From Rhizophagus irregularis (lineage: Eukaryota): 64,000 nt of DNA. Position numbers and translations under genes: made by a program. The notes below the pieces were generated by a model that did not search any database, had not been told where the DNA came from, and saw nothing but the letters and a program-made list of their open reading frames with translations. The DNA lies in NCBI RefSeq assembly GCF_026210795.1, contig NC_089433.1, positions 4,464,001-4,528,000 of the forward strand, in the 5' to 3' direction. The stretch's first letter is position 1, and every line of letters begins with the position of its first letter. Below are positions 13,561 through 52,649 of this stretch, one piece after another.

Positions 13561-15144
13561 TGGTTGGAATATGAACATCAAGTAGATTGTTGTTGTCCAT
13601 TATGATCTGAGGAATTGAAAAGCAAAGTAAACCACCTTTTATATTCATCATCAAACGGTATTGCTGGAGAGATCCGGATTAGCAAAATATTTATTAACAT
13701 CATTGACATGCTAAATATATTAAGTATTTGCGTTATTGCGTTAAGTATTTAATTTAACGTAATGGTGCCATATTGATATTTGATTTGTTCTTGAACTCAC
13801 CGACTTTTTAAATCATGGCAAAACTTAGAACGTTGGGTTGCAAGTCTTCTTTTCGTAGAAATCCTACGTATTATATTTTTAACTCCGCCAACATAAAAGA
13901 TACGTTTCAGTTGTTATATGACCATTAGCTGGCATAGAAGTTATACATTTTTTTGTGACGAGTAAAACATTGTAAGAGGGAATAGTAATGATAATATACT
14001 GTATGTAAAAAAATAGAACGTTGTACTTACTAATACGCCAGCTGCAAGTGCGCATTATATTATAACACTTTAGGACATTTTTTGTTGATCAACGCCGGTT
14101 CGAATCTAGAGAAATAAAACATCAAAGCACAACCGATTTTTGATAAATTAGCTTTCACTGAAATGAGCCAAGCCTAACACATAAATTGACGTATGACCAT
14201 CTTCAAATCGTATTGGAATAATCAGACGTCTGGAGAAATCTTCGGATTGAAGCAGTCTTTCCTGTCCTGTATAATGTTAATATGGGGATGTTAGTTCGCA
14301 TATAAAGTAGTATTCGTTTTGATGTTTGTTGTAACCATGTGCTTTCACATTCTATAATCTCGGGTAATTACAAATAAACATGAATTCTATAAAACGTTTA
14401 TTCATTTATGTATTTTTTTTTTGTCTAAATTTGTCTAACATCATAATATCAAAAAAAAAAAATAATAAATAAAATATCGAAAATAAAAATCTAGTAATCT
14501 CTAATTTGACATGATTTTCTAATTCTTTTGTTATTTCACCATCTTCAGAATTTTTTTTTTGGAGCTAATACTATTAAGTGTAGAAACGATTTCGGAAATA
14601 TCTTTCAAATTCCCAACATCCTATTTAAAGATTAGATAGACTAATTCTGGCTCATTCTTGGATGTCGATCATTGGGCTGGGGTGTATCAATGATACAAAG
14701 GATCTTTTTAGTTTATTTATTTGTTTATTTAGCACTAGAAGAACACGAAGTAAAAGAGAAATCTAATCTAATAGAAAAGAGAACAATGTTGTGACACCCA
14801 GTCTTTATAACCCTCCAAGCCCCCAAAAAATGGGAAACCTTTTTGAGTTAGGTCACAAACTTAAAATCCAAAATTATATATTTGTATGCATCAATTGAAT
14901 CATGCAATGCTTTAAGATTGTTCTAACTCTCAGTTTCCGAATAAATCGAGCAATTTATAAGTTTATCAGTGTTTTTGTATCATTAAAAAGGTAATTTCTA
15001 AACCTAAAATTGGAAAACAATAACGTCTTTGCATTTACATATAATTTTTACTCCAAAATAAATGAATAAGTAAATAAAAAAAATTTAATAAATAATTCTT
15101 TATATAACATGCAAGTGAAAAAAAACAATTAACAATTTTTTAAA

Positions 15145-16110
15145 ATGAATTTATCAGATTATATTCGGTCAATCTTCTTTAAAGTCAATATTAATAATGA
15201 ACGACAAAGAACATTTGTTCTTAACCTATGTACAAAATTTTTGTCTTCAGATACCCGTTCTTTTGGAATTCAATCTAATGATCTTAGTCGTTTTGAAATT
15301 GATGAATTGTATAAATTAGTATTTCGATCAAATGATGTCAAAATGTATTTTTCTCCTAATTCTTTTATAACTTTTAACATAATTCAATATTCATTAGCGA
15401 GTATTTTACCAATTTGTAAAGTATGGTTTCAACCTTATGTTGAAAGTTTAAGGAGATTAGACAAAGAAAAAAGAAGAGAATGGAACCAAAATAGTAACAT
15501 GAATAATCAAGTAGATAATATGAAGAATGATTTAATTAATAATATTGGTCAAATTTTACCTGGTTTTAATTATCTTATTGATTTCAATTGGGATGTTTAT
15601 GAGAATCATCGACATCATGAAGTTGGTGATTTGGTTTTTGGATCAGATTATGGTGTTATTATTGTTATTGAAACTAAGTGGTTTAATACTGATACTTTAA
15701 GCAAAGCGCAAGTAAACGCTAGAAAAAAAGCTAGAAACCGAGTTAGAAAGTATAGAGGATACGCGCAAGAAAAATTTATTGCAGTAAAAGCAATTGGGGC
15801 TGTTTTTACAAATGATACAGGAAATTCCATTCAGTTTGTAGATGATCAAGATGCGGGAATCGCCAAAATTATTGAAATTCATACTCAATATCTTTATAAT
15901 TTCGACCGTGGTAGGATTTCATTAGTTAATCTGTGTTTAATCTTTTTTTTTGTTTTCGTAAACTAATGATTTTTTTATAAAATTCTAGAAGAATGGGAAG
16001 AAAGTCCAGAAAAACGGGGAATATTAAAAACCATTCTATATTATATTATAATAGTATTATTAGTCATTGTTGCTGTAATTGTAGGTTTAGCTATTTTAAC
16101 CGTTCCATAA
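15145..16110 (+). CDS. PD-(D/E)XK nuclease-like protein with C-terminal transmembrane anchor, copy 1; exons 15145-15910 and 15989-16110
   Basis: VGDLVF...IVIETKW fits the D...ExK core. Exon 2 encodes ...KRGILKTILYYIIIVLLVIVAVIVGLAILTVP*. Confidence 0.75.
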
Positions 16111-18527: not shown

Positions 18528-20089
18528 TCAAGAATTCTGGGGTAGTGATGTTACTGATGTATTTGGTAATGTTGGAAGAGCGATAATTTCATCTCCAAAA
18601 TCTGTTTATTTTAAAATAAAGTCAACCTTTTATAAAATCGATTAATAATTAATATTTAGTTTACCTCTTATAAAATCATCATTATTAATTGATGTTGGGA
18701 GCGAAAGATTACTCTTCCCAGAATCTTCTACAAAAATTTAGAATAATACTATTTAAATTATAAGATCAAATTTAACAAAATAGTTTATAAAAATATATTA
18801 CCTAAAGTTGATCGAGAAAGATGTTCTTTAACACTTTGAAACGACAAGAATCGACTTGTATAACAAGTACCAGGATGATTACCGATTAGATTCATAATTT
18901 TAAGAAGACAAACCTTTTTCCTGTGCGAATTTTCTAAGAAAGGTTGGTTCGGACCTTCCTTTAGCATTGTAATAATTTGTTCAGCTGTTGGACGGTTTGT
19001 TGGATCTGAATCCCAACATTTTTCCATCAATTCTTTAATATAATTAGGAATACTTAACTGAGGAGGAATTTCTGGACGAAGACCTCTTACTATAATTTCA
19101 AGAATTAAATTTGCATCATGGCATCTGTTATTATAAGGTTCTTCAAGTGAATATAATACCCAAATAATAATTCCTAAACTATAAATATCTGACGCTTGTG
19201 TATATGGTTTCCCAAGAAATATTTCGGGTGCAACATATGGAATAACACCATAAATTCCTGATGATTTGATTGATGATGATATATTTGCAGGTTGGCTTAA
19301 TCCAAAATCACTTATACAGATTGGCATTTGATGCTGATTTCTTAATAAAATATTGCCTATATGCAAATCACAATGAACTAAACCAGAGCTATGTATTATC
19401 TTAAGTCCTTGAGCAATATCGAATATAATTCTTTTATTGGTACTAAATTTGTAATAATCATTATCTCTAAAGTTATAATTTGTAAATTCTACAGGTTCCA
19501 TGATATTTTTTTTTAAATCTCCTTTATCAGCATATTCAGTTACCATTATGAAATTTTGAGTAATTGAATCATACGAAATTCCATAAAATCTAGTTAAAAA
19601 AGAAGTATCACAATTTTTTCTATTTGATTCCATAGTCTGAATGTAATTTTTAACCTACAATTATAATACAAAAGTGAGTTATTAATATAATAAATCTCGT
19701 AATTTAAATGTAGTATTATGAGATACCTCATTAAGAAAATCAACGGTTATATTTTGAGAATCATATAATTTCTTTAAGACAACATAAGCTCCTTTCCATT
19801 TAGCTTTATAAATTTCTCCAAATCCACCTTTTGCTAAATATGTAATTTCACTAAATTGGTTATAGGGTATCCATTTTAAAACTTCATTTGGTTTATTACA
19901 TTCTTTAATAAAATCATCTACAATCTTATTTCCACTTGACCAATTCGACCAATTCGGATTTTCGCATTCATTACATAATAGTAGTTTTATGGTTTTACAA
20001 TATCCACAAATAGACGGAGAGTATTTATTAGATTGAACCTTACAATACTCACACCATCCAATTACTCTACAATTTTTACATGTTTCCAT
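18528..20089 (-). CDS. TKL-type protein kinase with Cys-rich N-terminus, copy 2 (four exons, paralog of 9013-10596)
   Basis: Same kinase motifs and intron positions as copy 1; last exon DFGDEIIALPTLPNTSVTSLPQNS* ends at 18528. Confidence 0.93.
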
Positions 20090-21104
20090 TGATTTTTTGT
20101 TTATAATTAAAAGAAAAGGGTTAATAAATTGTAGGATTATTGGACAAAATATATAAGCATTACATCATTAGGGAGAAAACACTCCGTTATCGTTTCACAC
20201 AATAACGAATTTGAAAATCCATCCGTTAAGACTTACTGTAAATAGTCAAAATTGCCATTATGCAAACGTGATTTATAGTAACACTTGCCTGACATTAAGT
20301 TACACATTAAATTAATACTTTATTTTTTAGACGATTTAGTTACAATTTGGCGTTCAAATGCTTTACAGTTGAGTTGACTTTACAAGGCGATGGACATTAT
20401 TAATTAAAAATGATATTTTTTTTTGAATCAATTTTTTGAATTTATTTTTTATTTTTTTTTTTAAATTTGATCGTTTCAATCGCAAAAGATTGTGGATAAG
20501 CTGCAAAAAGTTAAGATGATGATACTTAATATTAATTAATTTTTAACATACGTTAAATACTTGAAATAAATTTATAATCCATAATGATAAAACTTAATGT
20601 ATAAAAATATTAATTATTTTTTGAAAGTTTTGCTTGCGCAATTTGCGTAATTTAAATATATTAATATATTAATTTAATTTAACTTTTTGTATAATAATTT
20701 TTTAAATAATTATTAAGTGGCACCAGATAACATGAAATATCAATAATGATAATAAATTCTTGTTTCTTGTAATATACTATACTTTTGTGTACATCCATGC
20801 TTAAAATAGAATCAGGAAAAAAATATTTACCGGCTTTTCATACTGGATCTGCTCTGATTTTTAGATTTCCGAATAAATCGAGCAATTTTTACGTTTATCA
20901 GTGTTTTGTATCATGAAAAAGGTAATTTCTAAATCTAAAGTTGGGAGACAAAGACAGCTTTGCATTTACATATGATTTTTACTCTATAAAAAAAAATAAA
21001 CAAAAAAAAAAAAAATTAAATAAAAATTCTTTATATATATACCACATGCATAACATGTAAATGAAAAAAAAATTTTTATCAATTTTTTTTAAAACTTTCG
21101 AATA

Positions 21105-22053
21105 ATGTCATTCTTCTATGGAGTTGATGTTGACGATGAACAACAAAGAATATTTGTTCTTGACATATGCACAGAAATTTTATCTTCTTCCACGGATACC
21201 TATAATTGTTTTGACATTTCTAAATATAAAGGTCTTTATATTGATAAGCTGCTTAAATTAGTATTTCAATCGAATGATGTTAACGCACATCTTCTTCATC
21301 ATTCACTTGTTCGTGTTGACTTTAATGAAAATACATTAGCGAATGTTTTAAAAATTTGTAAAGTATGGTTTCAACCTTATGTTAGAAATTTAAAGAGAAC
21401 AGACAGAGAGAAAAGAAGAGAATGGGATCAGAATAAAAATATTTATCATCCAGAAGAAAAAATGAAGAATTATTTAATTAATAATATTGACAAAATTTTC
21501 CCCGGTTTCAATTATCTTGTTGATTTCGAATGGTGTGTTAATGAAGATTATCTTCATTATGGAATCGGTGATTTGATTTTTGGATCAGATTATGGTGTTT
21601 ATATTGTTATTGAAACTAAGTGGCTTAATACTAATACTGGAAAAACTGCCCAAGTATCTAGAAATATCGCTAGAAATAAAGTTAAATACCAATCTATAAC
21701 ATATAAAAAATATGCGCAAGAAAAATTTGCGCTAAAAGTAATTGGAGCTTCAGTTACGAATGATGAAGAAAACGCTATTCAGTTTGTAGATAATCAAGAT
21801 GAAAGAATCGCCTCAATTATTAAATATTATCATTCTGGTAAGAAGTATTTCATTAATTAATCTTTTTATCTAATATTTATATTAATCTTTTTTTTTTTAA
21901 TAAACTTTATTAGAATGGGGGACATTTAAAACTATTCTATATTATGTCATAATTTTTCCAATAAAATTAGTCGTTACTGTAATTGGTGTAATAATATTTT
22001 CAGCAATTATTACTGTACTTATAGGATCAATTATGAAAAATACCATTAAATAA
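21105..22053 (+). CDS. PD-(D/E)XK nuclease-like protein with C-terminal transmembrane anchor, copy 2; exons 21105-21837 and 21914-22053
   Basis: FEW...GIGDLIF...IVIETKW...KVKYQSITY gives E, D, ExK and QxxxY motifs. Exon 2 encodes EWGTFKTILYYVIIFPIKLVVTVIGVIIFSAIITVLIGSIMKNTIK*. Confidence 0.78.
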
Positions 22054-24581: not shown

Positions 24582-25768
24582 AAAAATTGCAATATTGAAA
24601 ATCATTTTTTTTTTTTATTTTGTGTAAATTTTGACCGATCATTGAAATTAACGAACGAAAATTCTTCAAACGAACGAATGGCGTAACATCTTCAAACGCT
24701 TAAATATATTATACTATATATTACAATTAATAAAAAATTTATATTTGCTTTTTTTTTAAAAAAAAAAAATGATAGCGGGTTCGAGAAAGTTGAAACGAAA
24801 AATGGACTAAATTAATTAATCATCATTTACGTAATTGCATGGACCATTCATAACGATTTGTAGAAACTTTTTTTTTTATTTGTTTAAATTAACAACTTTT
24901 TGGGCGATAAAAAAAAATTTTTTTTTCCTTTTCAACTATAATATAAATCTGTTGCCAAACCTAAAAGTCTCGATATAGTAACGAAAATTAAAAAAGGGAT
25001 AATTTTTTTTTTAAAAAATTTATTCCCAGATGAACATAGAGAAAAAAACCAATAAAATTTATAGGATATACATTACATTAAAGAAAATTTGGAAATTATA
25101 TCAGAAATGGTTCCGACAAAAAAAAATATTAACTATGACTTAAAGTTCAATTTCGGACCGAATTTGATCAATTATACTTTATGTACTACTTAATTGTTTG
25201 TTTCACGCAATCGGTGATACCTTAAAAAATCATAATTAATTTGCGGAATCGTGTAAAAATAGTAACGAATGTCGATGATTTACAAAAAGTAATAATAATA
25301 ATAATAAACCTGTAATTATGTATCCATTTTCTGTAAATTGAAAAATGTTTATAAATTTCATGAAATTTGTCAGACATTTTTTTTTAAAATAGGTTTCCGT
25401 TTTTAATAGGGGATTCTCCTCTTTAAATATTGTCAGCTAAAATTACATAAACCATTTCCCTAATCCAGTTTCTGAACACAAACCGGATTTTCTTTATCTT
25501 TATGAAACTCTATATAAAATTAACCAATTAAAATCCCGATTTTTTGATTGTAATTCCGAAATAGTCTCAAATTTTAAAAAAAATTGCCTATTTGTTATTA
25601 ATACTTTGATCGACAAAAACTAATGCGTTTCATTAATTTAATAAAATGCATGCAGTAACTTTATTAAGATTTTCACAAATATAAGAAAATATATAAAGGT
25701 CACATCTTTTATCCTGCTAAACAAAAACTTCCAATTTTTATTTGTTGAGCAAATATAAAATAATATCA

Positions 25769-26725
25769 ATGGTTGAAGAAGATTCATTAACAAAATTACT
25801 TCAATCATTACAAGATCCCGCACCTCAGTACGTATTAGGTTGCGTACCGGCTATAGCAACAATAGGAGCAGCACCAGATAACGGGTTAACAAATAAATTA
25901 TTATGGATATTACGATGTCTTGGTTGTCCATTTACCGGATTATTTTATACCTGCAACATAGGTAGTGACCCAATAGCAATGAGTACATACTGGCTCACAT
26001 CGGACCATTTTATGAAAGACGGATATAAAATTCCCTACAGACCTTTTGGTCATTATACTATGAAAATAGCGATAGATGAACAGGATAATACTGTTGTTAA
26101 ATTACTCAAGGAATGTATAGCGGAAGCATCTGTGCTAGACAGATTATCGTCATTGGCATCCGCGTACTATATATTTCTCGGTATATTTTCAGGAATAACT
26201 AAGGCGATACGTATAGGACAATGCACTGGAGAGGATTGGCCATATCTACCACTGGCATTAGCCTGGACATTTCCAGCAATTTATAGGAGGGTATCTAGAG
26301 GGAGAATGGTAGTCAACGACCCTAGACAAGTATTAGGAAACATGTATTTAGTTGTAAAAGACCTCCCACACAATGAGAGAAGTTCTCAAGATGCTCAAGT
26401 TATAATCACTTTTGTTTTATTCTCAGTGATCATCCCTTGGATGTCAGTACTTCTTGCCTATTTCACCCGTCCAGTGGGATATGGCTGTCGAGCCAAATAT
26501 CTCACAGTATTGTCTTCTATTTGGTCATTTAACAGTTTTATCGCATACATTTCCCATATTTCAGGAGAAAAATTCGTAGGGGGCAATAGATACGTTAATG
26601 GATGGTTTTGCCTTTGTGGTGTTATAATATCTATACTTTTAATTTTACTAGGTCTGCTAAGTCATACAAAATCTTGGTGGGGAGATCTATTTGGAGAAAA
26701 ATGTAGTGTTACATGTATTAATTAA
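25769..26725 (+). CDS. Intronless multi-pass membrane protein of unknown function (~318 aa)
   Basis: Long uninterrupted ORF in AT-rich DNA; first ATG at 25769 (MVEEDS...). About 5-6 hydrophobic segments and several Cys; no recognised domain. Confidence 0.8.
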   Translation: MVEEDSLTKLLQSLQDPAPQYVLGCVPAIATIGAAPDNGLTNKLLWILRCLGCPFTGLFYTCNIGSDPIAMSTYWLTSDHFMKDGYKIPYRPFGHYTMKIAIDEQDNTVVKLLKECIAEASVLDRLSSLASAYYIFLGIFSGITKAIRIGQCTGEDWPYLPLALAWTFPAIYRRVSRGRMVVNDPRQVLGNMYLVVKDLPHNERSSQDAQVIITFVLFSVIIPWMSVLLAYFTRPVGYGCRAKYLTVLSSIWSFNSFIAYISHISGEKFVGGNRYVNGWFCLCGVIISILLILLGLLSHTKSWWGDLFGEKCSVTCIN

Positions 26726-31283: not shown

Positions 31284-31864
31284 ATTTTTAATATTATTTA
31301 AATATTTGGTCAATATAGGAATTAAACCAAGGATATTTACTGGATTATATGATGCATTAGTTATTTTTTGATAAATCAAAGTCAACAATATAAATTAAAT
31401 ACAATCAGTTGTTGAAATAAGTATTTTACACTATTCATTTTTAATTTATGTATTGGAAATGGGTTTATATACTTAATATTTGATAATTTATAAAAAAAAA
31501 GGTTTTTTTAAATTATGAACTAAAGAAATTGTAAAATATTTATTACTCTAGTCCTAGTGTTTAAATAATTCTGAAATGAGAATACATATATTTTAATATT
31601 TGAATAGAATATAAAAAAAGGAATTATTTAAATTACAAACTAAGAATCCTTAAAATATTTTATCTAGCTATAGTGTTTAAATAAATTTAAAAAGAATAAT
31701 GAAGAACAATTTTTGTTAAATGCATGATATCAAATATTACTATATCTTTTTTAAGACACAAGTTAATTTTCATTTGTTTTAATATCTAAATGTTAAATAA
31801 ATAAAATTAAAGTTTGTAAAATAATTTATTTATTTTATATTATACTAGCTATATTATATACACT

Positions 31865-34800
31865 TTACATACCTAATTTCTTCAAATTAAATATGCATTC
31901 ATTCAAATCTTCGCTTATTAGCATTTCACTCACTTGTACACTAGTTTGTGAATTTTTACTTTCAAGAATTTCATTCAATTGTTTACTAGTAAAATTAAGT
32001 AAGCGACTTGTATAGCAAGCCTGTGAGTGAGATTCAGTAGCAAGGTTGTTATGCCCAATTGGTGCATTTATAAATTCCATAATATTGCATTTTAATTCTT
32101 CATTAATGTCTTCAATTTTCTTACCAGAAGGAAGAAAAATCCATTCATGAATAATATTTAATACTTCTTTAGAAGATGGTCTTTTTAATGGATCTCCATC
32201 CCAACATTTTTTCATCAAATCAACATAGCATTGCGGAGTATTTTCAATAATTTCAGGACGTTCACCTTCACAAATACTTAAACTAAGTTGAATATCATGT
32301 GCTCTATTATTAAATGGTGGTATTCCAGATGTAAATTCCCACAAAATCATAGAAAAACTATATATATCACTAGCTGGAGTATAAGGTTTGCCTCTTAAAA
32401 CTTCAGGTGCCATAAATGGTACAACACCATAAATCTTATACTCTTTCAAAAATGATTTTACAGGTTGACATAATCCTAAATCACTAATATAAATTCTGTC
32501 TGCTTTATTCTCTTCATCTTTATTATTATTATTATTTAAAATATTGCCATCATGAAAATCACAATGAATAAGATTTAGTCTATGTATATCATCAAGTCCA
32601 GAAATAATTTCATACAACATGTATAATTTATGGTCCCAACCACTTTTAACTATTCTTGTTAAGTTTCTTCTTAAATTACCTTTGTTTGCATAATCCATTA
32701 CTGCCATGTATTTCAAAGTATCTGGATTTTTTGTAAATCCATAAAAATAAATAATATCATATGAATTTGAACAACTTTCATGATATTTCCACTATAAAAA
32801 ATAATAATATATTAATACAAATAAATTATAATTTAAATTAAAAGAAAAAATAAATAATATAATATCATACTTCATTTAAAAATTCATTTAAATTTTCATT
32901 TAAATTATTATGGCATTTAAGAATTACTTCTATATTATTTCCATCATTCTTTAACCAAATAGCTTTGTATATAGTACCAAATCCTCCTTCATTAAGATAT
33001 TCAACATTTTTAAATTTACTATAAGGAATCCATCTTAACTTTTTTTCAAGAATAAATTCATCTATGATTTTATTTCCACTTTTTCCATATCTATAAATTT
33101 AAATAATTAGAAGTTTATAATATAATTTACACTAAAATTTAAAGATTAAAATTAACACTTACTCTAAATTTAAATAGGAATTTAAGATAAAATACGTCAA
33201 AGTTTTGTATAAATATTTATAATAATAAGCTATATTTCATAACTTACCAACTAAAGTAATAGAAATTTAAAATAAAAAAATACAGTTAACAAATAAATAT
33301 TATATATTATATAAAATATAACAATAGAAATAACAACTTACTAGCTATATTAAATAATTTTTTAAATAAAGAATTTAGTTAGTTTTAAATATTATAACAA
33401 ATAAGTAATAATAAAATTAAATAAATACTGTAACTTACACCCTATATTATTTAAATATTTTTTTAAATAAAGAATTTAGTTAGTTTAAATTATATGTAAA
33501 TATTATAACAATAAGTAATAATAGATAATAGAATTAAATAAATAACTTACGAGCTATATTATTTAAATAATTTTTCAAACAAAGAATTTAGTTAGTTTAA
33601 ATTATATGTAAATATTATAACAATAAGTAATAATAGATAATAGAATTAAATAAATAACTTACGAGCTATATTATTTAAATAATTTTTCAAACAAAGAATT
33701 TAGTTAGTTTAAATTATATGTAGATATTATAGCAATATTAAAGTAATAATAGAATCAAATAAATAACTTACACCCTATATTATTTAAATAATTTTTTAAA
33801 TAAATAATTTAGTTAGTTTAAATTATATGTAAATATTATAACAATAAGTAATAATAGAATTAAATAAATAATTTATAACTTACGATCTATTAAATAAAGA
33901 ATTTAGTTATTTAAATTGTATGTAAATATTATAACAATAAGTAATAATAGAATTAAATAAATAACTTACACTCTATATTATTTAAATAATTTTTTAAATA
34001 AAGAATTTAGTTAGTTTAAATTATATAACAATAAGTAAGAATAGAATTAAATAAATAACTTACCCTCTATATTATTTAAATAATTTTTTAGATAAAGAAT
34101 TTAGTTAGTTTAAATTATATGTAAATATTATAACAATAAGTAATAATAGAATTAAATAAATAACTTATAACTTACCATCTATTAAATGAAGAATTTAGTT
34201 AGTTTAAATTACATGTAAATATTATAACAATAAGTAATAATAGAATTAAATAAATAAATAACTTACTAACTAAAAGAAATTACAAAATAATTTTTTAAAT
34301 AAAGAATTTAGTTAGTTTTAAATATTATAACAAATAAGTAATAATAGAATTAAATAAATAATAAAATATTTTTTAAATAAAGAATTTAGTTAGTTTAAAT
34401 TATATGTAAATATTATAACAATGAGTAATAATAGAATTAAATAAATAATTTATAACTTACGATCTATTAAATAAATAATTTAGTTAGTATAAATTATATG
34501 TAAATATTATAACAATAAGTAATAATAGAACTAAATAAATACTATAACTTACACCCTATATTATTTAAATAATTTTTTAAATAAAGAATTTAGTTAGTTT
34601 AAATTATATGTAGATATTATAGCAATATTAAAGTAATAATAGAATCAAATAAATAACTTACACTCTATATTATTTAAATAATTTTTTAAATAAAGAATTT
34701 AGTTAGTTTAAATTATATGTAAATATTGTAACAATAAGTAATAATAGAATTAAATAAATAACTTACCCTCTATATTATTTAAATAATTTTTTAGATAAAG

Positions 34801-36793
34801 AATTTAGTTAGTTTAAATTATATGTAAATATTATAACAATAAGTAATAATAGAATTAAATAAATAACTTATAACTTACCATCTATTAAATGAAGAATTTA
34901 GTTAGTTTTAAATATTATAACAAATAAGTAATAATAGAATTAAATAAATAATAAAATATTTTTTAAATAAAGAATTTAGTTAGTTTAAATTATATGTAAA
35001 TATTATAACAATAAGTAATAATAGAATTAAATAAATAATTTATAACTTACGATCTATTAAACAAATAATTTAGTTAGTATAAATTATATGTAAATATTAT
35101 AACAATAAGTAATAATAGAACTAAATAAATACTATAACTTACACCCTATATTATTTAAATAATTTTTTAAATAAAGAATTTAGTTAGTTTAAATTATATG
35201 TAGATATTATAGCAATATTAAAGTAATAATAGAATCAAATAAATAACTTACACTCTATATTATTTAAATAATTTTTTAAATAAAGAATTTAGTTAGTTTA
35301 AATTATATGTAAATATTGTAACAATAAGTAATAATAGAATTAAATAAATAACTTACCCTCTATATTATTTAAATAATTTTTTAGATAAAGAATTTAGTTA
35401 GTTTAAATTATATGTAAATATTATAACAATAAGTAATAATAGAATTAAATAAATAACTTATAACTTACCATCTATTAAATGAAGAATTTAGTTAGTTTAA
35501 ATTACATGTAAATATTATAACAATAAGTAATAATAGAATTAAATAAATAACTTATAACTTACCATCTATTAAATGAAGAATTTAGTTAGTTTAAATTACA
35601 TGTAAATATTATAAACAATAAGTAATAATAGAATTAAATAAATAACTTACAAGCTATATTATTTAAATAATTTTTTAAATAAAGAATTTAGTTTGTTTAA
35701 ATTATATGGAAATATTATAACAATAAGTAATAATAGAATTAAATAAATAACTTATAACTTACGACCTATTAAATAAAAAATTTAGTTAATTTAAATTATA
35801 TGTAAATATTATAACAACAAGTAATAATAGAATTAATAAATTATTTATAACTTACCATCTATTAAATAAAGAATCTAGTTAGTTTATATTATATGTAAAA
35901 TATTATAACAATAAGCAATATTAGAATTAAATAAATAACTTACTCCCTATATTATTTAAATAATTTTTCAAAGAAGAATTTAGTTAGTTTAAATTGCATG
36001 TAAATATTATAACAATAAGTAATAATAGAAATAAATAAATAAATAACTTACTAACTAAAAGAAATTACAAAATAATTTTTTAAATAAAGAATTTAGTTAA
36101 CTTAAATAATAGATATATAGACGTCATATAACTTACACCCTGTAGTATTATCAATTATTAATTGGTTAGATATAAATTTAATAGAAAAGTATTTACTATA
36201 ATTAATATATCACTTACAATCTATTTATTTAAATTAAAAATATGATTAGTTAGATTATATTAAAATATTAAATATTAATAAATAAACATCATATTAATAT
36301 AATATCCTTAAGGCTTAAGTAATATAACTTACCAGCTGTAAAATTATTAATTAGTTATTTAAATAAAGAATTTAGTTATTTGAATATTATATAAAATAAA
36401 TAAAGTGAAAAACTAAAAATTTAATAACTAATAACTTACAAACTATAGTATTATTAATCATTAAATGAATTATTTAGTTATATATAACATAATAAAAATA
36501 ATAATTAATATTTGCAAAATTGTTTAAACTTTTTATGGGATAATTCTAATTTTATATTCTGTATGATTACCTTTATCAATACATTGATCCATTACTATAT
36601 CAAATTCTTCCTAATTGGAAAGATAAAGTAAATATCTTTTTTTTTCTTTTTTTTTATTATTTATACTAAACGTCTTATTAGTACAGATAAATATGGTAAT
36701 AATATTTATGCAAAATGCATTGTATACAAAATGTTGATCACAAGTACAAGTATTATATGTATGACAAACAAATTTTGCATATCTGGAATGCAT
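31865..36793 (-). CDS. TKL-type protein kinase whose N-terminus is encoded by a microexon array; exons 36793-36728, 36610-36571, 31 x 3 nt (36442-33248), 1 nt (33163), 33090-32871, 32791-31865
   Basis: Kinase domain is intact (EGGFG, VILKC, HCDFHDGN, SDLG, APE, DIYSFS, CWDGDPLKRP) and certain. The 5' structure is inferred from splice signals and phase compatibility. The first ATG could instead be 36592. Confidence 0.82.
33163..36442 (-). repeat. Tandem array of ~85-115-bp intron units separated by 3-nt microexons
   Basis: Plus-strand motif ACTTAC-NNN-CT(A/G) occurs 31 times, read on the minus strand as YAG|NNN|GTAAGT. Core units carry a CTAAC branch point (aactaactaaattc). Confidence 0.9.
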
Positions 36794-39620
36794 ATCAATT
36801 ATCTAGCAAAAATCACAAAATAGAGAAACTTTTCTTAATACATATTAAATATACAAAATTTTAAAAGTCATTGAGATTATATTTGGCTACTTTACAAGTA
36901 TGCATTAAAATTATTTACAATTAACAGTTAAGTATACGCAAGATTTTTTGAAATAAAGCTAAAAAATAAGTTTATTAATTATAAAAATATTTAACTTTGA
37001 AATTAAAAGTCATGTAAGGTGAAAATTTTTGGGTGATATTGGAAACAGTATTTATATATATTATTTTTATTTTTTTTTTTTATCAAAAATTGTGGTATAA
37101 GGGCTTTTTTCATTTCATTTTCATTTTTTGGTCTCATTCCTTTTCCTTGGCCTTTTTTGTTTCATTTATTTGGTTTTTCTTATTTTTGACCCCCTCACAG
37201 GAATATAAAATTTAAATTTTTTACTGGTTTTCATTGATCAAATAAAAATTAAAAAATTAACCTGTCAAAGAATTCTGTAAAATCATATATCTGATATTGT
37301 CATATAACGAGTTGTGGATAAATGATAAATCACTATTAAAAACATTTAGCCAATCAATTTTAATTTGAAAATCATATGATAGGGCTGAAACTTATCATTT
37401 TATTATTGTATAAAGCTTAGTTTTGTGGCTATGGAAGTGGCTTTTTATAACCAATTCTCAGCTTTGATGGATATCACTTTAATTGGAATAATTATATGTT
37501 GTATTTTTATTTATATTTGGCTAGAAAATTTAAGTATAAATAAGCCTCAAATTCATGATCCCCTTTGATTTTCTTTTTTCTTTGTTTTTCAAAAATGTAA
37601 TTCAATTATACTACTACAACTTGTTATATTATAAAACACTTATTAGTTTTTTGGAAAAAACAATAAAGCAAACTTAGAATTTTACACTAAATAACTTTCC
37701 TTTTATTACAATCTAATTATAAAATATTTTAACTATATTTAAACACAAATTTCTGTATTAAAAAAATTTTGATGTTTAAAGGATTTTTAAAAGCATTCAA
37801 TGACAATTTAAACAAGTAGCCATAAAATTATTTATGCATCAAATTATTAAATTACATAAATAAAAATTGGCAAATTTAATTTGGATTTGTATTCCTTTAC
37901 TTCAGAGTACAAAAAAACAATATTTCTATTATTGACCTTTAAAGTTAATAAATCAAGATTATAAAGATTGCTCATTGATGAACTTTGATGTAATGATTGA
38001 ATAAACTTCATCCTAAATAATTTAAATATAAGAATAATTAAGCAGTATGTAATGCAGTCAGATGAAAAGAAGCTTTAAATTTGAATATTTACTGTATACT
38101 AGTTGGTTTATTGTCTCAAATCTTCTTGATTTCAGCACACATAATCAAACATAATTATATTGAATTTGTATAGTACTTTATACTTTATAAATTAAATTAA
38201 AAATATTCTAGAAAAGAATATTTTTTACTACAAATATTTGGACTTACCACCAAAAAAATGGAACTTTTGGAAAACTATAAATTATATATAGATAAAGACC
38301 AAATATTGAAACATAATACTTCAGAAATCAAAGCTAAGCAAGTAATTTCTGATGAGATTTATAGTGTTTTTAGAATTTGGCTTATAAAATTCTCAGTATA
38401 CTTCATTGAGTTAATGAGTTCAGTCTTTTTTTAAACAATGGATGAAAAAAAATTGGATGTTAGAAAGATATTTATAAAATTACAGTTAATGATCTTTCCA
38501 AAACACAAAAAGCAAATAATAGCTAGTCTATCTCTTGGATATGAAAATATTCCATATTCTAGTATATTTATATTACAAATGAATTTTCCGTTCAAATACC
38601 CAAAATAATTTTGATAAAATTAAAAAATACAAATCTAAATAATTTGTCTACTTATAATCAGTATTTATTATATTTTTTATAATTTGTAATTAATATAGAG
38701 TAGATCCACTATAGCTCGTAAACCTCATAAATCAAACTAAACAATATTTTACTGTAAATATATTAGAAATTTGGAATATTAATATCACCAAGGAAATATG
38801 AAATTGAAGTTCCAATTTGTAATGGAATTCTCAAAATTTATCAATACTCCTTTTGATAATATTCTCTTGATAAATGTTATCAATACCATCTCCAATATTT
38901 ATCTATTACTTACCTATACATTCTATTTATTTTTTTAATTATATATACAAATCTTTCTTAAAAATATACTTATTTTACTTTTTATTTAATAATTGAATGA
39001 TTAATTATAGTAAATAGTTTCCTTCAATACCTATTAGCCAAATATTGTGTTTACATCAATGGTTAAACAATGCTTAGACTTTATATATTATTTAATGTAT
39101 TAGTCTTTATAAAGAACTTCTATGCGAAGCACAGGTATCATATTTATAATTTAAGTTAATTGGTTTGTCTAAGTTTAATATTTAAATATCAGCAAAATCT
39201 ATTTCAATTCATCAAAAAATGTCATCAACTTCTAAAGATTCAAAGGTGGCATATCAACTCTCAATAAGTGATATCATTTGGATGTTCTTAACAACACATA
39301 TCAATATTCAAGGAGAAGTATTTTGGTACTAATGTTAATTTAAAAAACAAAATCTGAGCTCTAGTAAAAATTTGAAAATAAAAAGACTTCAAAAATACTT
39401 GAAGAACTGGCCAACTTTATATCTTATTTATGAAATTGTTGATAATTCTAACCTTACTTCACATACAACAAAAAACTAATTTTGGTAAATTTGAAAATTT
39501 GGGTGAGATAAATAAATTCTGGTTATATAAAATTACCTTTTATGCTTAATTAAGATTGTTCAGCAAGTAAAACATACCTGTATTTTAATTTTCATGAAGC
39601 TAAGTATGATATTTATACAA

Positions 39621-40898: not shown

Positions 40899-42840
40899 TA
40901 CAGGTCAAATAAATAAAAATCAGATTTTTGCCCTTTTTAATATGGCTGTCTGATTTTTTGGCAATTTTAATATAATATTTCCGATTTTAATAAATATTTC
41001 TGATTTTAATATAATATTTCTGATTTTTAACATGAAATTGCCGATTTTTGGTTATTTGTAATAGGATTTTTCAATTTTAATATGTAACATGTGATTATGT
41101 ATTACGGTTTAATATTTATTTATTAACTTAGATTTTTTTTTATTTCAGTTATAATTATTTTTTTGCCTTAAAAACTTTACTAAAATACTTTTTAAATACT
41201 TTATAAAATAGAATTAAAATATTTTTTTTCTTAAATATAAATACATTTAAATTAAATAACTCATAATTTAAAATATAAACAAATATTATATTTTTTTTAC
41301 ATATATTTCAAAGTATGGTTTGAGCATTTTGGCTGAAGTAAATCTTATTCTTTTAATTAAAAGTAGTTTAGTAAGTTTAAAACTGTTAAGATCATAAAAG
41401 TACAGTTAATATTTTTGGAATTATTTACATTTTTTATATTATACAGTAGTATTAAGTTACAAATTTTTTTACCTTCAGAGCGTATTTTGAGATCTTTAGC
41501 CAAAGTAAATCAACTTCTTATATTAATTGTAAGTTGTTCGGCAGGTTAAAATCTACTTGGATATTAATTTTCACGAAGGTACAGTTAATACTTGATGAGT
41601 TATTTACAATTTTCACAACAGTACTCATTCACGACTTTTATTTTTTTCATTTTGTCACTCCAGAGCGTATTTTGAGCACTTTATCCAAAGTAAACCAACT
41701 TCTTATATTAATTGAAAGTTGTTTAGCATGTCAAAATCTACTTGAATATTAATTTTCACGAAGGTACAGTTAATACTTGATGAGTTATTCACGATTTTCA
41801 CAATGGTACTCATTTACGAATTTTATTTTTTCCGTTTTGTCACTTCAGAGCGTATTTTGAGCACTTTAGTCAAAGCAAATCGACTTCTTTTATTAATGCA
41901 AAGTTGTTTAGCATGTCAAAATCTACTTGAATATTAATTTTCACGAAGGTACAGTTAATACTTGATGAGTTATTCACGATTTTCACAATGGTACTCATTT
42001 ACGAATTTTATTTTTTTCCGTTTTGTCACTTCAGAGCGTATTTTGAGCACTTTAGTCAAAGTAAATCGACTTCTTTTATTAATTGAAAGTTGTTTAGCAT
42101 GTCAAAATCTACTTGGATATTAATTTTTACGAAGGTACAGTTAATACCTGATGAGTTATTCACGATTTTCACAACAGTACTCATTTACGAATTTTATTTT
42201 TTTCCGTTTTGTCACTTCAGAGCTTATTTTGAGCACTTTAGTCAAAGTAAATCGACTTCTTTTATTAATTGAATGTTGTTCGGCAGGTCAAAATCTACTT
42301 GGATATTAATTTTTACGAAGGTACAGTTAATACCTGATGAGTTATTCACGATTTTCACAACGGTACTCATTTACGAATTTTATTTTTTCCATTTTGTTAC
42401 TTCAGAGCGTATTTTAAGCACTTTAGCCAAAGTAAATCGACTTCTTTTATTAATTAAAAATTGTTCAGCAGCTTAGAATCTACTTGAATATTTATTTTAA
42501 TGAAGGCACAGTTAATATTTGTGGAGTTATTAATTTTTTATAATTGTGCGTATTACATTAAATTACAAGTAAATTTATATTCTTAATGTATTTTGTTTAA
42601 AATTTAATTATTTAACATTAGTTTTTTATTTAATATTGCTTAATAAAATATTTTTTAAATTTTAATTCAATATTATAATATAATTTTTTATAAAAATATA
42701 TATTTCATAATGTATATACAATTTTTTTGTATAGTGAAAAAACTGAAAAATGTGGTTAAGAATTGGTAATACAGCTGTAAAAAGTCACAAATCGGACAAA
42801 TATAGCTAAAATCAGCCAATTTTTATTTATTTGACGTGTG
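40899..42840. mobile_element. Nested CACTA-like element inside the 5.9-kb element
   Basis: tacaggtcaaataaataaaaat ... atttttatttatttgacgtgtg inverted ends flanked by ATA on both sides; GATTTT-type subterminal repeats at 40920-41050. Confidence 0.7.
41300..42530. repeat. ~185-bp tandem repeat, about 6 copies
   Basis: gaaggtacagttaata anchor (last copy gaaggcacag) at 41575, 41760, 41945, 42131, 42317 and 42502. Confidence 0.92.
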
Positions 42841-43048
42841 ATAGAGTAAGTTTTTCTACACTTTAAAGCATCAAACAATACTAGTATCTGCTAATATATA
42901 CTACCCAAAAACTCACTGATGTAAAATCACAATTATTAAAAAATTCACAAGAATTTTTGTTAATACTGTTTAATTTTTAAGTTCAAAGTCCGATTGATAA
43001 TACTAAATTCAAAACTCAATTATAAATCATTTTTATAAATTATAATTT

Positions 43049-43840
43049 AAAAATTAAGCAGTATTAAGGAAAATTCTCATGAATTTTTCTTAATACTACT
43101 TAATTCTAATTTAACCAATTTAGTATTAAGGTTTTAATTTAAAAATTAAGCAGTATCAAGGAAAATTCTTGCGAATTTTTCTTAATACTGCTTAATTCTA
43201 ATTTAACTAATTTAGTATTAAGGTTTTAATTTAAAAATTAAGCAGTATCAAGGAAAATTCTTGCGAATTTTTCTTAATACTGCTTAATTCTAATTTAACT
43301 AATTTAGTATTAAGGCTTTAATTTAAAAATTAAGCAGTATCAAGGAAAATTCTTGCGAATTTTTCTTAATACTGCTTAATTCTAATTTAACTAATTTAGT
43401 ATTAAGGCTTTGATTTAAAAATTAAGCAGTATCAAGGAAAATTCTTGCGAATTTTCCTTGATACTGCTTAATTCTAATTTAACTAATTTAGTATTAAGGC
43501 TTTGATTTAAAAATTAAGCAGTATCAAGGAAAATTCGCAAGAATTTTTCTTAATACTGCTTAATTCTAATTTAACTAATTTAGTATTAAGGTTTTAATTT
43601 AAAAATTAAGCAGTATCAAGGAAAATTCTTGCGAATTTTTCTTAATACTGCTTAATTCTAATTTAACTAATTTAGTATTAAGGCTTTAATTTAAAAATTA
43701 AGCAGTATCAAGGAAAATTCTTGCGAATTTTTCTTAATACTGCTTAATTCTAATTTAACTAATTTAGTATTAAGGCTTTGATTTAAAAATTAAGCAGTAT
43801 CAAGGAAAATTCTTGCGAATTTTTCTTAATACTGCTTATA
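43049..43840. repeat. 92-bp tandem repeat (9 copies), each with a ~54-bp hairpin
   Basis: aaaaattaagcagtat starts at 43049, 43141, 43233, 43325, 43417, 43509, 43601, 43693 and 43785. Stem aattaagcagtatcaaggaaaattc / gaatttttcttaatactgcttaatt. Confidence 0.95.
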
Positions 43841-44937
43841 TCTGCCAATTCGTGAAATTAGCCAAACATAAAGATTTGCACATTTTAACAAGAATTATGT
43901 TTCACAAGCTTAAATTGTATGTGTTACATAATCAGATGATCTAAATCTATCAAAAAATAAAAAAAATTTTTTAACGTTTATTCAAAAATAACAATGGCAA
44001 CTACTTTCTTTTTCAATCACTTTTCAATCACTTTTCAATCAGATTTTTGTTAGGTGACTTAGAAAAGTTTATAGGCATATATAGCAGGTTTTTTTTAATC
44101 AGTAAGTAAGAAAACAAATATTAATAATTTTATTAATAAGAAAAATCTTTTTTCATTTATTTTTAACCTTATTTCCTTCTTTTTTTTAGTAAAAATATAT
44201 ACAAAATAAAAATGTGAGTTATGATTTAGAGTTTTTGAGATGTTTTTTTTTGTTTTTTACTATACTAATTTTATTCTACTTGTTAATTACTTTTTAAAAT
44301 TGATTTTATTAATTTATTCAATTTAAAACAGAAATGGCAAATAAAAACTTGTTAAGTAAAGTAAAAAGAGCCCAATAATACCTGTAAAGATCATCTTTTG
44401 GTAAGAATTATAATTTTAAAAATTTTTGTGTCAGAGTTTTATTCAATTAACAAAATCGTTAATATCTCGGCGCACATGTATGCTAAACACATATATTTAT
44501 ATTCATATGAAAGCCCAGAATCTACTCTACCTGAACGAAAAAAGATTATTCAAATCGAATTACTAGATGTGAAGATATTAACGATCAAAGTCAAAGGTTA
44601 AAAATAAATATATTGAACGTAATTATTCAGCAACTTGTGATCCAATTCATGTGATATTTGGTTTATGGATAGCTCTTGATTACCTCTTTCTAATGAATAT
44701 AAATTCATTCGTCTAGCACACATACACGTTAAGTTATTCAATATTTTGTCATGACAATTATATTTAAATTTTTTAATTTTAATGATATTATTAAAAAAAT
44801 CAAAAAATAATATAATCAAATCAATTTTATTTATATCAGCGGTGTGAATCTATCATTTTCATGTAAATTGTATTAGCATTTTCTTAATAAAGTTAGTTTT
44901 TTGAATATAAAAACTTAATTCCATAAATCAGCCCATA

Positions 44938-45200
44938 TGTTAATTCTAATTTAACTAATTTAGTAGTATTAAGGCTTTAATTTAAAAATTAAGCAGTATC
45001 AAGGAAAATTCTTGCGAATTTTTCTTAATACTGCTTAATTCTAATTTAACTAATTTAATATTAAAGCTTTAATTTAAAAATTAAGCAGTATCAAAGAAAA
45101 TTCTCACAAATTTTTCTTAATTCTAATTTAGCTAATTTAGTATTAAGGCTTTAATTTAAAAATTAAGCAGTATTAAGAAAAATTTTTACAAATTTTCTTA
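44938..45200. repeat. Further 2-3 degenerate copies of the 92-bp hairpin repeat
   Basis: Same unit resumes after ~1.1 kb of unrelated sequence. Confidence 0.85.
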
Positions 45201-48200
45201 TTAAAAAAAAGAACTTTTAAATTACTAATTAAACTTTAAAAACAATCTGTATGATTTAAATTTTAAAAAAAATACTTCTGCTTTTTAATTTTCGCATTTC
45301 TATATTTAACCAATTAAAATTCAGCTGATCGCCGATCACATGCATTAATAACACGTTATTGTTTATTTTTTGTTTATTTTTTCAAAAATATTCTTTTCTC
45401 TTCTTTTTTTTTAGAAAAAAAAAGACAATAAAAATGAATACCAAAATTATTTTAACATATAATAATAAAAATTAAATAAAAAACTTATTTTGATAATATA
45501 TAATATATATATTTGTACCAAACTACTAATTATACAAAAAGTGATATGCACGTATATCAATTAACAATTACTTTCACTAATATCTCACTGGAATTGTAAT
45601 GGTGAATTTTAACAATATTAATTAAACAACTATATATACACCGTTTTATGTTTTTATTTTTGCATTAATATTATATGTTAACATATATTAATTATATTTT
45701 TTTTTACTTTTATGTATTTTATTTAATTTTTTTAATATATTACTAACATTACTACTATCGTTTTATTACTTTTTTATATCTAACTAATATATTAATAATA
45801 TTACTAACTTTTTATTATTTCTTTTTTATATTTAAAATAATGATAATATTACTAATTAAATTTCTTTTTTTTTACTAACCTTTTATTATTCCTTTTTTAT
45901 ATTTAAAATAATGATAATATTACTAATTAAATTTCTTTTTTTTTGTTTATATTTTGCTAATATTATTTTTTTTACAAATAGTATATTATTTTATACTAGT
46001 TTTTTATTTATATTATTTATAAAAAAATATTTGTATATTTAATATTATTTAATAAAAATTTTATTGATTATAAATGCATTTTAAATTCTGTTTGCAAATA
46101 TAAAATATACGATTTAATTGAATAATATATACTATTTATCAGTACAAAATATGCAGTTTAAACTGGAAAAAAGTACTGTTTATCAGTATAAAATATACGG
46201 TTTATCCTGGAAAAGTATACTGTTCGCAATATAAAATATAAAACAATATACTGTTTATTGGTATAAAACATACGGTTTTTCTACTGTTTACAAGTATAAA
46301 ACATACGGGTGAAACTGGAAAAATATACTGTATGCAAACCGTATATATGATACGGTGTGCAGAATACCGAATATATACAGTATGTGAAAATACTGTAATT
46401 ATACGGTAATAATACTATAAATATACTGTTCGCAAAATACGAAAATACAGTATACTAACCGTATATATATTTTTTATAGGGACTGTTGGAAATGAGCAGA
46501 AAATAATTTCAAACAAGATGAGACATTTAATATTATTTAATAATAATATATTATTAGCAATTAAAGTTTAATAGAATTCAAAATCATTTTTGATTTATTT
46601 TTATTATTCCAATGAAAGAAAAATTTGAAAGTCATTGTCAACTTAAAAAATGTCAATTTATATTATTTGGCATTCTAGATTTACAATATACAGAGTTATT
46701 GTTTTCCAGATATGTAAAATGACAGAAAGTTAGAAAGTATGTAATAATAAGAATGATGATAACAATAATAATTATGCAGAATTATAGAGACTAAAGAAAC
46801 ACACAAAGTAGAAGTAGAAGATGAAGCAGAAGCAGATAGAGAATTACAAGAAAGTGAAAAAAGAAGAGGAAGACGAAATAGGAGAAGAAGAAGGCGAAGG
46901 AAATTATTATAGCACAGATAATGATATGAAAGAAAGAAATAGAATGGATTTCTGATAAAACACTACCACCATTTGTTTAATATAAATAAAATAAGCACAA
47001 ACAATTACATTACTACAATCCATAATAATAAATATTTTTATGGAATTAAATTAAAAAAAAATGCAACAAATCCAATGATAGATGCAGCAATTGGATTCAA
47101 ATCTTACAGCATTCTATATGGAAAATAACAATAAATTAAACTAAATAATACACTAAAGACTCAAATGCAGCAAGCTTCCGAAAGCAAAAATGAAGATAAT
47201 GACATATGAGTAATAATCAACAACAAGTAAAACTTAGAAAAAAATTCAAATAATTAAAATAACCAACTTATGTTCTTAATATTTTATATACAGGATGTGC
47301 TATAAAGCTATTACAGTGAGATTACCAAGTTGATTACATGGTAAAAAACCTGAAAATAATTATGACTATACATAGGTTGTGATTGTATAGAAATCTCTTA
47401 ATTAATTATAGGAAGTGTGTGTTATTATATGAGGTTTAACTGTATTCAAATTTAGTATAAATTTGAAGTTTTAAAGTTGACCAGCTTATGAATGTTGAAT
47501 TCTAGCCATAGAAGAAAGATAAAACCATTAAACTGATTAAAGTCATGGTGGAAAATAAATTCTACACAGAAATTTTACTTACTTCACTGGGAATATCCAA
47601 TTTGTCAAATTTGCAGTAGATTATTACACTTTTTCATTTATTTTGGATGATACCCTACCTATCAACAAAATCTTTATTTAAAGTATCATGATGTTAATGG
47701 ACAAATAACACAGCTCACGCTGATAATATAGGATGGCATTTATATATACAAATAAATTTAAATTTCTTGCAGCTTACTTATTCTATTGCAAGGTCAAATT
47801 TTATCATTGTTTAATGCATATTAGCAATATTATTATCAATTCTTCTAAAGTTGCTGAAAGATAGAGTGTGGAAATAAGAGTAACCAATGATGATTCTAAC
47901 ATCATGATATTGTTAAAATATATATTCTTATGATAGCAATGTGATGATTATTAAGTGGCAAGATGAGACTTTCGAAGTTGCTACAGAATGCAGAGAAATG
48001 CCTCATCTATAATTAGTATCAAGGTACACAATATTGAAAAAGACAAATCAAATGATAATACATTAAATGAAAGAATTTTACAAAATGTAATACTAAGGAG
48101 AAGGATAGCAAAGAAAAGCCTGCCAAGAAATGGATAAGGACTTGCTTTTGCATTATTTCAATTTTATATTTACAAAAAAATATTCAAAAAAAAATATCAA

Positions 48201-50524: not shown

Positions 50525-51452
50525 TAGATGCGAATATGACTTTCGATAGTTTAATAAATAAATAATTATGGGGTTATGGAGGCTGATATTATTATTAAAA
50601 TTTAAAATATGTTTACGATCAGTAACGGTACCGAAATGTAACGTAACCGATTTAAGTGCTACCTTAATCATCAGAAATCAGACACCAGATTAATTTAATC
50701 AAAATCAAACGCCAAATCTGCCAAATTTTACTCTCACGGGAAGGCAGTGGAGGCAGTGCTATGCGAGATTTTTAAGCCACTTACGCAATATTAAGCCTTA
50801 TTACTACAAAATATAAAATTTATTAAAAAAAAATAATAAAATCATGTCAGCAACATACTTGTGATGATGTCTACAATATTTTTTTTTTTTTGAAAAATTT
50901 ATATGAAATTTTTTTAATGTTGACATATTCAAATTTTGCCGTTGTACCAGAATTTCTATCAGACCAATCAAAATATCATCAGATAGTTAAATTATAAATC
51001 ATTATGTTACTAAAAAGCTCATGTTAAAATAAATCTGACATGAAAATGATCGTCATTTTAATTTTGGTGATATTTTCTAAATAGAAGGTAAATATTTACA
51101 AGTGTAAACGAAGATGTACTGCTTACAGAAAAAAAAAATCGTTTAATTGTTACCAGCTTAATAAATAGACTTAATAGTGATAAAAGCCATAAGATAAAAA
51201 TAGTAAAATAAAAATAGTGCATTTTCATCCAATCGGTTGGTCCTGTGACCAAAATTACAATATGATGTAATCTAACCATAATAGTGAAAAGCGAATACTC
51301 ACGCCATTATTTTTACGGGGAGTACAGGTTTATCCAAAAATTTAGTAACACCTTTAAAGTGTTACACGACATCATGTAATTTAATAAATATATACGCCAC
51401 GATAATTTTTTTTCTTAAAAAACTCCCGTTGAATTTGTTAAAGATTAACAAA

Positions 51453-52649
51453 ATGCAACTTCCTATTGATTGCCTTAATAATATTTTTGAACATTTAGAA
51501 AGTGATAAAGTTACTTTGTATTCATGTTTATTAGTCAATCGACTTTGGTGTAAACTTTCCGTCAGAATTTTATGGAGTAAAATTAGAAATTACAATACTT
51601 TAATTTCTTGTCTTCCGAATGAATCAAAAGAAATCTTACTTAATAATGGAATTTTAATAACAAATTCAAAACCTCCAATATTTAATTATGCATCATTTTG
51701 TAAATTTCTATCAATTTATGAAGTTAATTATAATATTAAGAATATTCTTAAAAGAAGATATTTTATTTCTGTTCAAAATTTAGACGATAATATTTTTATT
51801 GTATCACAGGAAATATTTAAACTTCTTATGGGACAAATTCCTTCTTTAAGAAAAATAACATTTTTAGGTTGGTCATTAAAACATATTACAAATTTTACTT
51901 CATATTCTGGAGCTAGAGATTGTTTAAAAAATTTAACAGAATTATATTGTTATTCAAGTATTCGTACCGAATTTTTTTATCAATTATCTCAAGTATGTCA
52001 TACTTTAAAAACACTAAAAATAATATACAAAAAAGTCATTTCAAGTGGATTGGTTGATTTAGTATCCGTTCAACAAAATTTAAAATATATGTGTATGTAT
52101 CGATTTGGTCTTCATAAAGATTTGAAAGATACAATTAATTTGATATCAAAAATTCCTAATACTTTAATTTCAATAAATATTTATGGGGGAAGAATGCATC
52201 CAAATATTTCATTATCATTTATATCTAGATTCACTAAATTACAAGAACTTATATTAACATTTTATAGTAATGAACCTTATAGAGATTTTAGTAATTTACA
52301 ATACGATATTTTTCCATATTTACAACGTTTAGAATTTAAAAGAGAATGTCCTGATAATGATTCATTAGTAAATTTTTTGGAAATTAATGGAAAAAATTTA
52401 AAAGAATTTTATGTTAGAAATAGTAATAATTTATTAAATTTAGCTATAATTAAATTTTGTCCAAATCTTAGAAAACTTTCTACTAAATTTAGTAATGATG
52501 AATTAGATACGTTAAAATTTATTCTTAATACTTGTCAATATTTAGAAACTATTGATATTTTTTGTAAAGAATATATGAATGATTTAAATTTAATTGAGAT
52601 TGTTATGAAAAATGTACCTAAAATTCATTATAAAATCATTTTAATATAA
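51453..52649 (+). CDS. F-box / RNI-like leucine-rich repeat protein, intronless (~398 aa)
   Basis: MQLPIDCLNNIFEHL...LYSCLLVNRLWCKLSVRILW F-box-like start, then the PPIFNYASFCKFL motif and LxxL repeats (FCPNLRKL). First ATG at 51453. Confidence 0.9.
   Translation: MQLPIDCLNNIFEHLESDKVTLYSCLLVNRLWCKLSVRILWSKIRNYNTLISCLPNESKEILLNNGILITNSKPPIFNYASFCKFLSIYEVNYNIKNILKRRYFISVQNLDDNIFIVSQEIFKLLMGQIPSLRKITFLGWSLKHITNFTSYSGARDCLKNLTELYCYSSIRTEFFYQLSQVCHTLKTLKIIYKKVISSGLVDLVSVQQNLKYMCMYRFGLHKDLKDTINLISKIPNTLISINIYGGRMHPNISLSFISRFTKLQELILTFYSNEPYRDFSNLQYDIFPYLQRLEFKRECPDNDSLVNFLEINGKNLKEFYVRNSNNLLNLAIIKFCPNLRKLSTKFSNDELDTLKFILNTCQYLETIDIFCKEYMNDLNLIEIVMKNVPKIHYKIILI

Follow-up and report, generated by a model that had tools for sequence, protein, structure and literature searches.

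Exons of a single nucleotide have been described in Arabidopsis APC11 (PMC4674806) and Fusarium CYP621A (PMC12940212), and Coprinopsis cinerea is reported to have 13 in as many genes (PMC12230235), so that the remark in the initial annotation that such exons are very rare needs to be tempered. For APC11, intron definition with stepwise removal was proposed (PMC4674806). Codon-sized mini-exons are known from the NACHT-ANK (nank) genes of Tuber melanosporum, together with alternative splicing (Iotti et al. 2012, cited in PMC4986451, PMC10197012 and PMC13449251), while the Schistosoma MEGs have exons of mostly 15 bp, introns of 0.1-5 kb and secreted, parasite-specific products (10.1101/2023.06.21.545858). 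A search of openly accessible papers yielded no work on arrays of micro-exons in arbuscular mycorrhizal fungi (AMF) and no review of the Rhizophagus kinase family.

The window analysed here comprises 64,000 nt of Rhizophagus irregularis DNA (contig NC_089433.1, positions 4,464,001 to 4,528,000) and contains, on its minus strand, a protein kinase gene in which the A at 33163 is probably a genuine exon of one base at the end of 31 predicted three-base exons and is predicted to shift phase 1 to phase 2. As in APC11 and CYP621A, one base stands between two ordinary GT-AG introns and leads from a phase-1 end to a phase-2 start, and in all three cases gene predictors missed it; with CYP621A the locus further shares that the single base is the middle base of its codon. 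The APC11 and CYP621A exons, however, are solitary, lie within conserved motifs of housekeeping or metabolic genes and are backed by cDNA, whereas the A at 33163, an exon predicted from DNA, ends a run of 31 triplets and would belong to a codon drawn from a 3-nt, a 1-nt and a long exon. The nank genes of Tuber form an expanded family in a mycorrhizal fungus as well, and their 3-nt exons likewise follow one another by the tens, comparable to the codon-sized run of 31 units predicted here from the DNA. The nank products are nevertheless NLR-type receptors of an ascomycete, whereas the gene in the window encodes a glomeromycete protein kinase for which Pfam returned kinase families only and no NACHT-ANK receptor; the present array also differs in lying N-terminal to the kinase, in its phase 1, in its tandem-copied introns and in its predicted 1-nt closing exon. 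With the Schistosoma MEGs the locus has in common many short exons in multiples of three and an occasional one that is not, but its triplet exons are all 3 nt, its introns measure 72-191 nt and its product is a kinase, so that it does not qualify as a MEG. The array thus works like the one-base exons combined with the codon-sized arrays of Tuber, and is a member of neither the nank genes nor the MEGs. It is the array, not the single base, that forms the interesting part of the locus; the one-base exon alone is a further case of a known rarity.

The first coding exon (36571-36610, 40 nt; minus strand, as for all features of this gene) is preceded by an acceptor and contains an ATG at 36592, followed by 7 codons plus 1 nt and a phase-1 donor, GTAATC. 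Its start matches that of P0113, one of the relatives' protein models considered below, in 6 of 7 residues, and a similar short start is found in 10 models. Intron 1 (36443-36570, 128 nt) has no AG-N(0-8)-GT inside and therefore no hidden 2-nt exon. It is followed by the array (33248-36442), whose 31 predicted 3-nt exons alternate with introns of 78-191 nt that all have a GTAAGT donor, and whose last exon (TTG, 33248-33250) would contribute its G as the first base of a split Glu codon. Downstream of the predicted one-base exon, kinase exon 1 (32871-33090, 220 nt) starts in phase 2 and encodes an SGNKIIDEF motif, the Gly-rich loop and the Lys strand; kinase exon 2 (31873-32791) matches Pkinase (E 3e-30) and PK_Tyr_Ser-Thr (E 2e-28). 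The likely last coding exon (31763-31785) adds 7 codons and a stop, with the same C-terminus in models P0001, P0003 and P0006. Upstream of the first coding exon, the stretch 36611-36802 (-) is similar to the beginning of P0009, an R. diaphanus model (TCTCDQHF in both), which suggests that the 5' region is conserved and that an intron precedes the ATG.

With the first exon joined to the 31 triplets, the A and both kinase exons, the frame stays open over 418 codons, or about 425 aa with the last exon, and the micro-exons supply 94 of about 1275 coding nt. When the A is left out and acceptor 33090 is used, a stop appears within 10 codons. Frame computation bears out the initial annotation in that the upstream exon ends in phase 1, that the kinase exon at 33090 needs phase 2, and that the single A completes the frame: 31 x 3 nt plus 1 nt yields the open frame, with a GAA codon split G-A-A over three exons. 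The accompanying claim that the array must add 3n+1 nt holds for acceptor 33090 only. Within 300 nt past the donor of the last triplet there are 15 AG sites, at 4 of which the kinase frame is open without the A; the first of these is 33061, and the other three cut into the Gly-rich loop. No AG before 33061 opens the kinase frame unless the A is spliced in, and 33090 is the first AG past the CTAAY branch match.

Read directly from the window, the minus strand around 33163 is tttAG-A-GTAAGTg, the A being flanked by the AG and the GT of two complete introns of 84 nt (33164-33247) and 72 nt (33091-33162), in agreement with the earlier description. Both introns run from GTAAGT to TAG. A clear match to CTAAY/CTRAC was seen only in the downstream 72-nt intron, 20 nt before its 3' end, and none in the 84-nt intron, which has a TTGAC about 35 nt before its end. 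Neither is a copy of the array repeat: the best identity to it was 0.65 for the 84-nt intron (shuffled control 0.62) and 0.62 for the 72-nt intron (shuffled 0.62). The motif YAGNGTAAGT occurs 2 times in the window against an expectation of 0.55 +/- 0.69, and because 7 of 100 shuffles reach 2, the one-base motif alone is not significant. The other TAGAGTAAGT copy, at 42842-42851 (+), is isolated between two satellites with no adjoining array and was taken as chance.

The array stands out more clearly. YAG-NNN-GTAAG occurs 31 times on the minus strand inside these 3.5 kb, versus 2 times in the rest of the window on both strands. Among spacers of 0-9 nt between YAG and GTAAG only 3 nt (31 sites) and 1 nt (1 site) are found in the array, with 0 zero-length YAG-GTAAG sites, and each of the 32 GT[AG]NG donors from 36439 to 33162 has an AG 3 nt (31) or 1 nt (1) upstream, leaving no orphan donor. 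From the first exon to the kinase exon there are 33 introns of 72-191 nt (median 102); 32 start with GTAAGT, and all 33 end in YAG (TAG in 31, CAG in 2). The central introns are tandem copies with 86-100% identity, and this copying of units is recent. Two introns, one of 169 nt (34882-35050) and one of 191 nt (34270-34460), are of double length and contain two CTAAY matches and no internal AG; each is likely the product of two repeat units that merged when an acceptor, its exon and the following donor were lost. Within 34270-35468, five units making up a block of about 590 nt are present twice, with 99-100% intron identity, through either recent unequal crossing-over or an assembly artefact. 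The introns at both array ends, including the two around the A, carry perfect splice signals, and five of them scored 0.61-0.67 against the repeat where shuffled sequences gave 0.59-0.63 (32 of the 33 introns compared). Since these non-repeat introns keep perfect signals, the signals would not be by-products of a satellite, and we infer that they are the best sequence-internal sign of selection for splicing.

The composition of the triplets is likewise restricted. At the middle position, 19 of the 31 have T and 12 have G, never A or C, with 15 distinct triplets. In phase 1 this middle base is the wobble base, which forces the rare codons GAG, AGG and CGG: of the 7 Glu codons in the array 6 are GAG, as against 2 of 31 in the kinase exons, and G is the last base of each of its 3 Arg codons. 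This bias, which amounts to about four independent events, suggests that splicing constrains the triplets. In codon usage the array differs from the window in both readings (z -4.3 in phase 1, -4.6 in frame 0); with distinct codons only, z is -1.6 and -3.6, respectively, so that the statistics favour phase 1 only slightly. In computed skipping, all 31 single triplet skips and 449 of 496 block skips remain stop-free. The stop-free order of the triplets recurred in 3622 of 100000 free shuffles, but it is weak evidence because 11297 of 20000 shuffles (56%) give it when the duplicated block is kept whole; a further test, in which just 192 of 7102 stop-free shuffles withstood each of the single skips, is confounded by the same block duplication.

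Within Rhizophagus, the gene falls into an expanded PF07714/PF00069 kinase-like family, its kinase domain scoring above the Pfam cut-off and its close relatives lying in the same genus. A total of 1693 relatives were found, the best 120 of which are Rhizophagus models save for 9 without organism name. The best relative, P0001 (R. irregularis), is 98% identical in the large kinase exon and is modelled with the same 72-nt intron. SGNKII is also coding inside one ORF in other kinases of the window (53% identity over 47 aa, E 2e-15), and two uninterrupted window kinases align to the gene only from SGN onward. Two kinase genes of the window, at 9183-10596 (-) and 18785-20164 (-), have a Cys-rich N-terminus and SGNKIVDDFI in one ORF; no micro-exons were seen in either. 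Both have a related ORF at a distance of a few kb (15133-15966 and 21093-21860, respectively), an arrangement that suggests segmental duplication.

The junction was further compared in 139 protein models with a named organism, 9 of 148 having been dropped as nameless; two of the 139 are not kinases, and the sources name R. irregularis, R. diaphanus and R. clarus. These are automatic models and not independent, as they include alleles and repeat models of one gene. Because automatic models record the DNA where they err, the annotation errors of the relatives can reflect the same layout. The start of the kinase exon ([FYS]GxS) is present in 59 of the 139 models, with residues before it in 52, and the junction is absent in 80. 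Seven models have [NI]LE directly before [FYS]G and 3 others YLNFR, and the window yields both words when the 84-nt intron is read into AG-A. Of 69 models whose N-termini were tested (PAM30, E up to 0.01, low-complexity filter off, short or wrong-strand chance matches discarded), 7 align to the 3' end of this intron, and P0037 continues with FRVS, a read-through of AG-A-GTAAGT. A further 21 models end in xS[KN] at this point, corresponding to A plus GTAA taken as a 5-nt exon. The preceding residue is M in 11, L in 7 and W, E and A in 1 each, all compatible with a triplet ending in G; the GT that enables 'SK' belongs to any GTAAGT donor, and the 11 MSK models fit a 3+1 layout or a fused 4-nt exon alike. 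In two models, P0077 and P0075, the last TTG unit is read through (VGKL).

Runs rich in G, I, L, M and V precede LSK in 7 models. There, 125 of 140 residues have T or G as the middle codon base and 13 have A, versus 986 of 2360 with A in the kinase parts of the same models, pointing to probable triplet arrays in relatives. P0006, P0065 and P0071 translate the repeat intron itself, six models read the downstream acceptor only, and P0079, P0113 and P0144 (3 of 139) use the equivalent of acceptor 33061. P0014, P0070 and P0139 show VE before [FL]G, P0014 with an acidic, Trp-rich stretch like the predicted phase-1 linker, and these three may be correctly spliced models. Except possibly for them, none of the models compared joins first exon, array and kinase in the proposed frame, and a search with the P0113 N-terminus gave 4 matches, 2 of them not kinases, with no correctly joined model. 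P0053 and P0079 start with MGQ[CY], which we take to be a possible lipid-anchor motif; the gene in the window is without it. Taken through their errors, the models indirectly suggest that relatives in three Rhizophagus species have AG-A-GT(AAGT) at the same position.

Were the A unused, the last triplet could be spliced to the TAG acceptor at 33061 inside the kinase exon, which would fix the frame at the cost of 10 residues. The intron of 186 nt required would lie within the local range of sizes, the kinase frame is open, and three relatives are modelled in this way. On the other hand, such splicing would pass over seven other AGs at least 40 nt from the donor, including one right after CTAAY, and would remove SGNKII, which is conserved and coding in the uninterrupted kinases; the [FYS]GxS start kept in the 59 models also argues against it, and it gives no reason for the apparently conserved AG-A-GTAAGT. 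We therefore regard this route as quite unlikely. Somewhat less probable again is that the triplets are whole codons (frame 0) of a hydrophobic, membrane-like segment and that the small exon has 5 nt (AGTAA, donor 33158). Frame 0 of the array is indeed stop-free and rich in G, I, L, M and V, 21 models read xS[KN], and 19-residue hydropathy reaches 2.3-3.2 in 4 of the 7 array-bearing models; the value for the array in the window is, however, only 1.29, and a T or G middle base is enough to make such a segment hydrophobic. Moreover, 16 of 31 triplet third bases are G/C, unlike wobble positions (17% G/C). Frame 0 would also have to use the weak donor GTGTTA in place of the GTAAGT that lies 4 nt from it, and upstream the frame would have to shift by another 2 nt, for which intron 1 holds no candidate, while the corresponding register of exon 1 contains two stops and lacks an ATG. 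The preference for phase 1 rests on the phase-1 end of the first exon, the lack of a small exon in intron 1, the two stops in the shifted frame of exon 1 and the weak donor on which frame 0 depends.

A different objection is that the gene is silent or decaying, or that the array is mostly skipped or retained, its signals surviving by tandem copying. Large AMF kinase families hold many weakly expressed copies, and the central introns are copies with 86-100% identity. The non-repeat introns at both ends nevertheless keep perfect signals, the 418 codons are without a stop and the kinase motifs are intact, and the same anatomy appears in relatives of three species; we judge this possibility unlikely, although it is the most probable of the alternatives considered. 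Least probable of all is that the units serve as recursive-splicing ratchets, in which AG regenerates a donor and splicing mostly removes both the triplets and the A. The back-to-back AG..GTAAGT has the shape of a ratchet point, a model named in the work on APC11 (PMC4674806), but the spacing is 3 nt (31 times) and 1 nt (once), never 0, and the zero-length AG-GT in long introns that defines ratchet points was found at 0 sites in the array. Full removal would in addition leave phase 1 against phase 2, that is, a frameshift. Judged on DNA anatomy and comparison, the frame-restoring one-base exon of the initial annotation is accordingly supported with good, if not complete, confidence.

With the A as a one-base exon closing the triplet array, each short AT-rich intron would be recognised by its own ends (intron definition) and the introns removed one after another, and exon size would matter little because recognition depends on the ends of each intron. 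The triplets would straddle codons, the first base of each completing one codon and the other two opening its successor; translated, they would form an acidic linker of 32 residues, rich in Trp and Tyr, that connects a short N-terminal peptide to the kinase. The A would be an old, fixed adapter common to the family, whose skipping would lead to a premature stop and likely a degraded message. The linker, in turn, would vary in length and content through unequal crossing-over of units, with triplet skipping as a probable further source. More speculatively, and at a confidence that we hold to be low, the whole AMF kinase subfamily may build its N-terminal linker from codon-length exons. Because the triplets straddle codons, a skipped triplet would then create a new hybrid codon rather than a mere loss of a residue, and one gene in a multinucleate fungus could yield a combinatorial linker library, with the one-base exon as a frame gate (included, the kinase; left out, the premature stop). 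This combinatorial reading would be an independent origin of a Tuber-type diversifier on a kinase, in the main lineage of plant symbionts, hidden in the public annotations seen.

If the layout is real, splicing has to take out 33 introns to join a mere 94 exon bases, and the locus would provide a natural test of the spliceosome on back-to-back introns, concerning the order of removal, intron definition and the avoidance of A and C at the middle base. A kinase subfamily of an AMF model species would then be systematically mis-annotated at its N-terminus, and gain and loss of units at the DNA level, possibly with skipping at the RNA level, would give it a source of protein variation.

Elsewhere in the window, tandem arrays are present at 41473-42531, 43043-43838, 44940-45202 and 45733-45944, with periods of 185, 92, 82 and 52-71 nt, respectively; these four arrays (41473-45944) contain no YAG-N(0-9)-GTAAG runs. 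Two long ORFs were also seen, one at 51288-52649 (+) of 453 aa that is F-box/leucine-rich-like by eye, and one at 25721-26725 (+) of 334 aa that by eye resembles a membrane protein.
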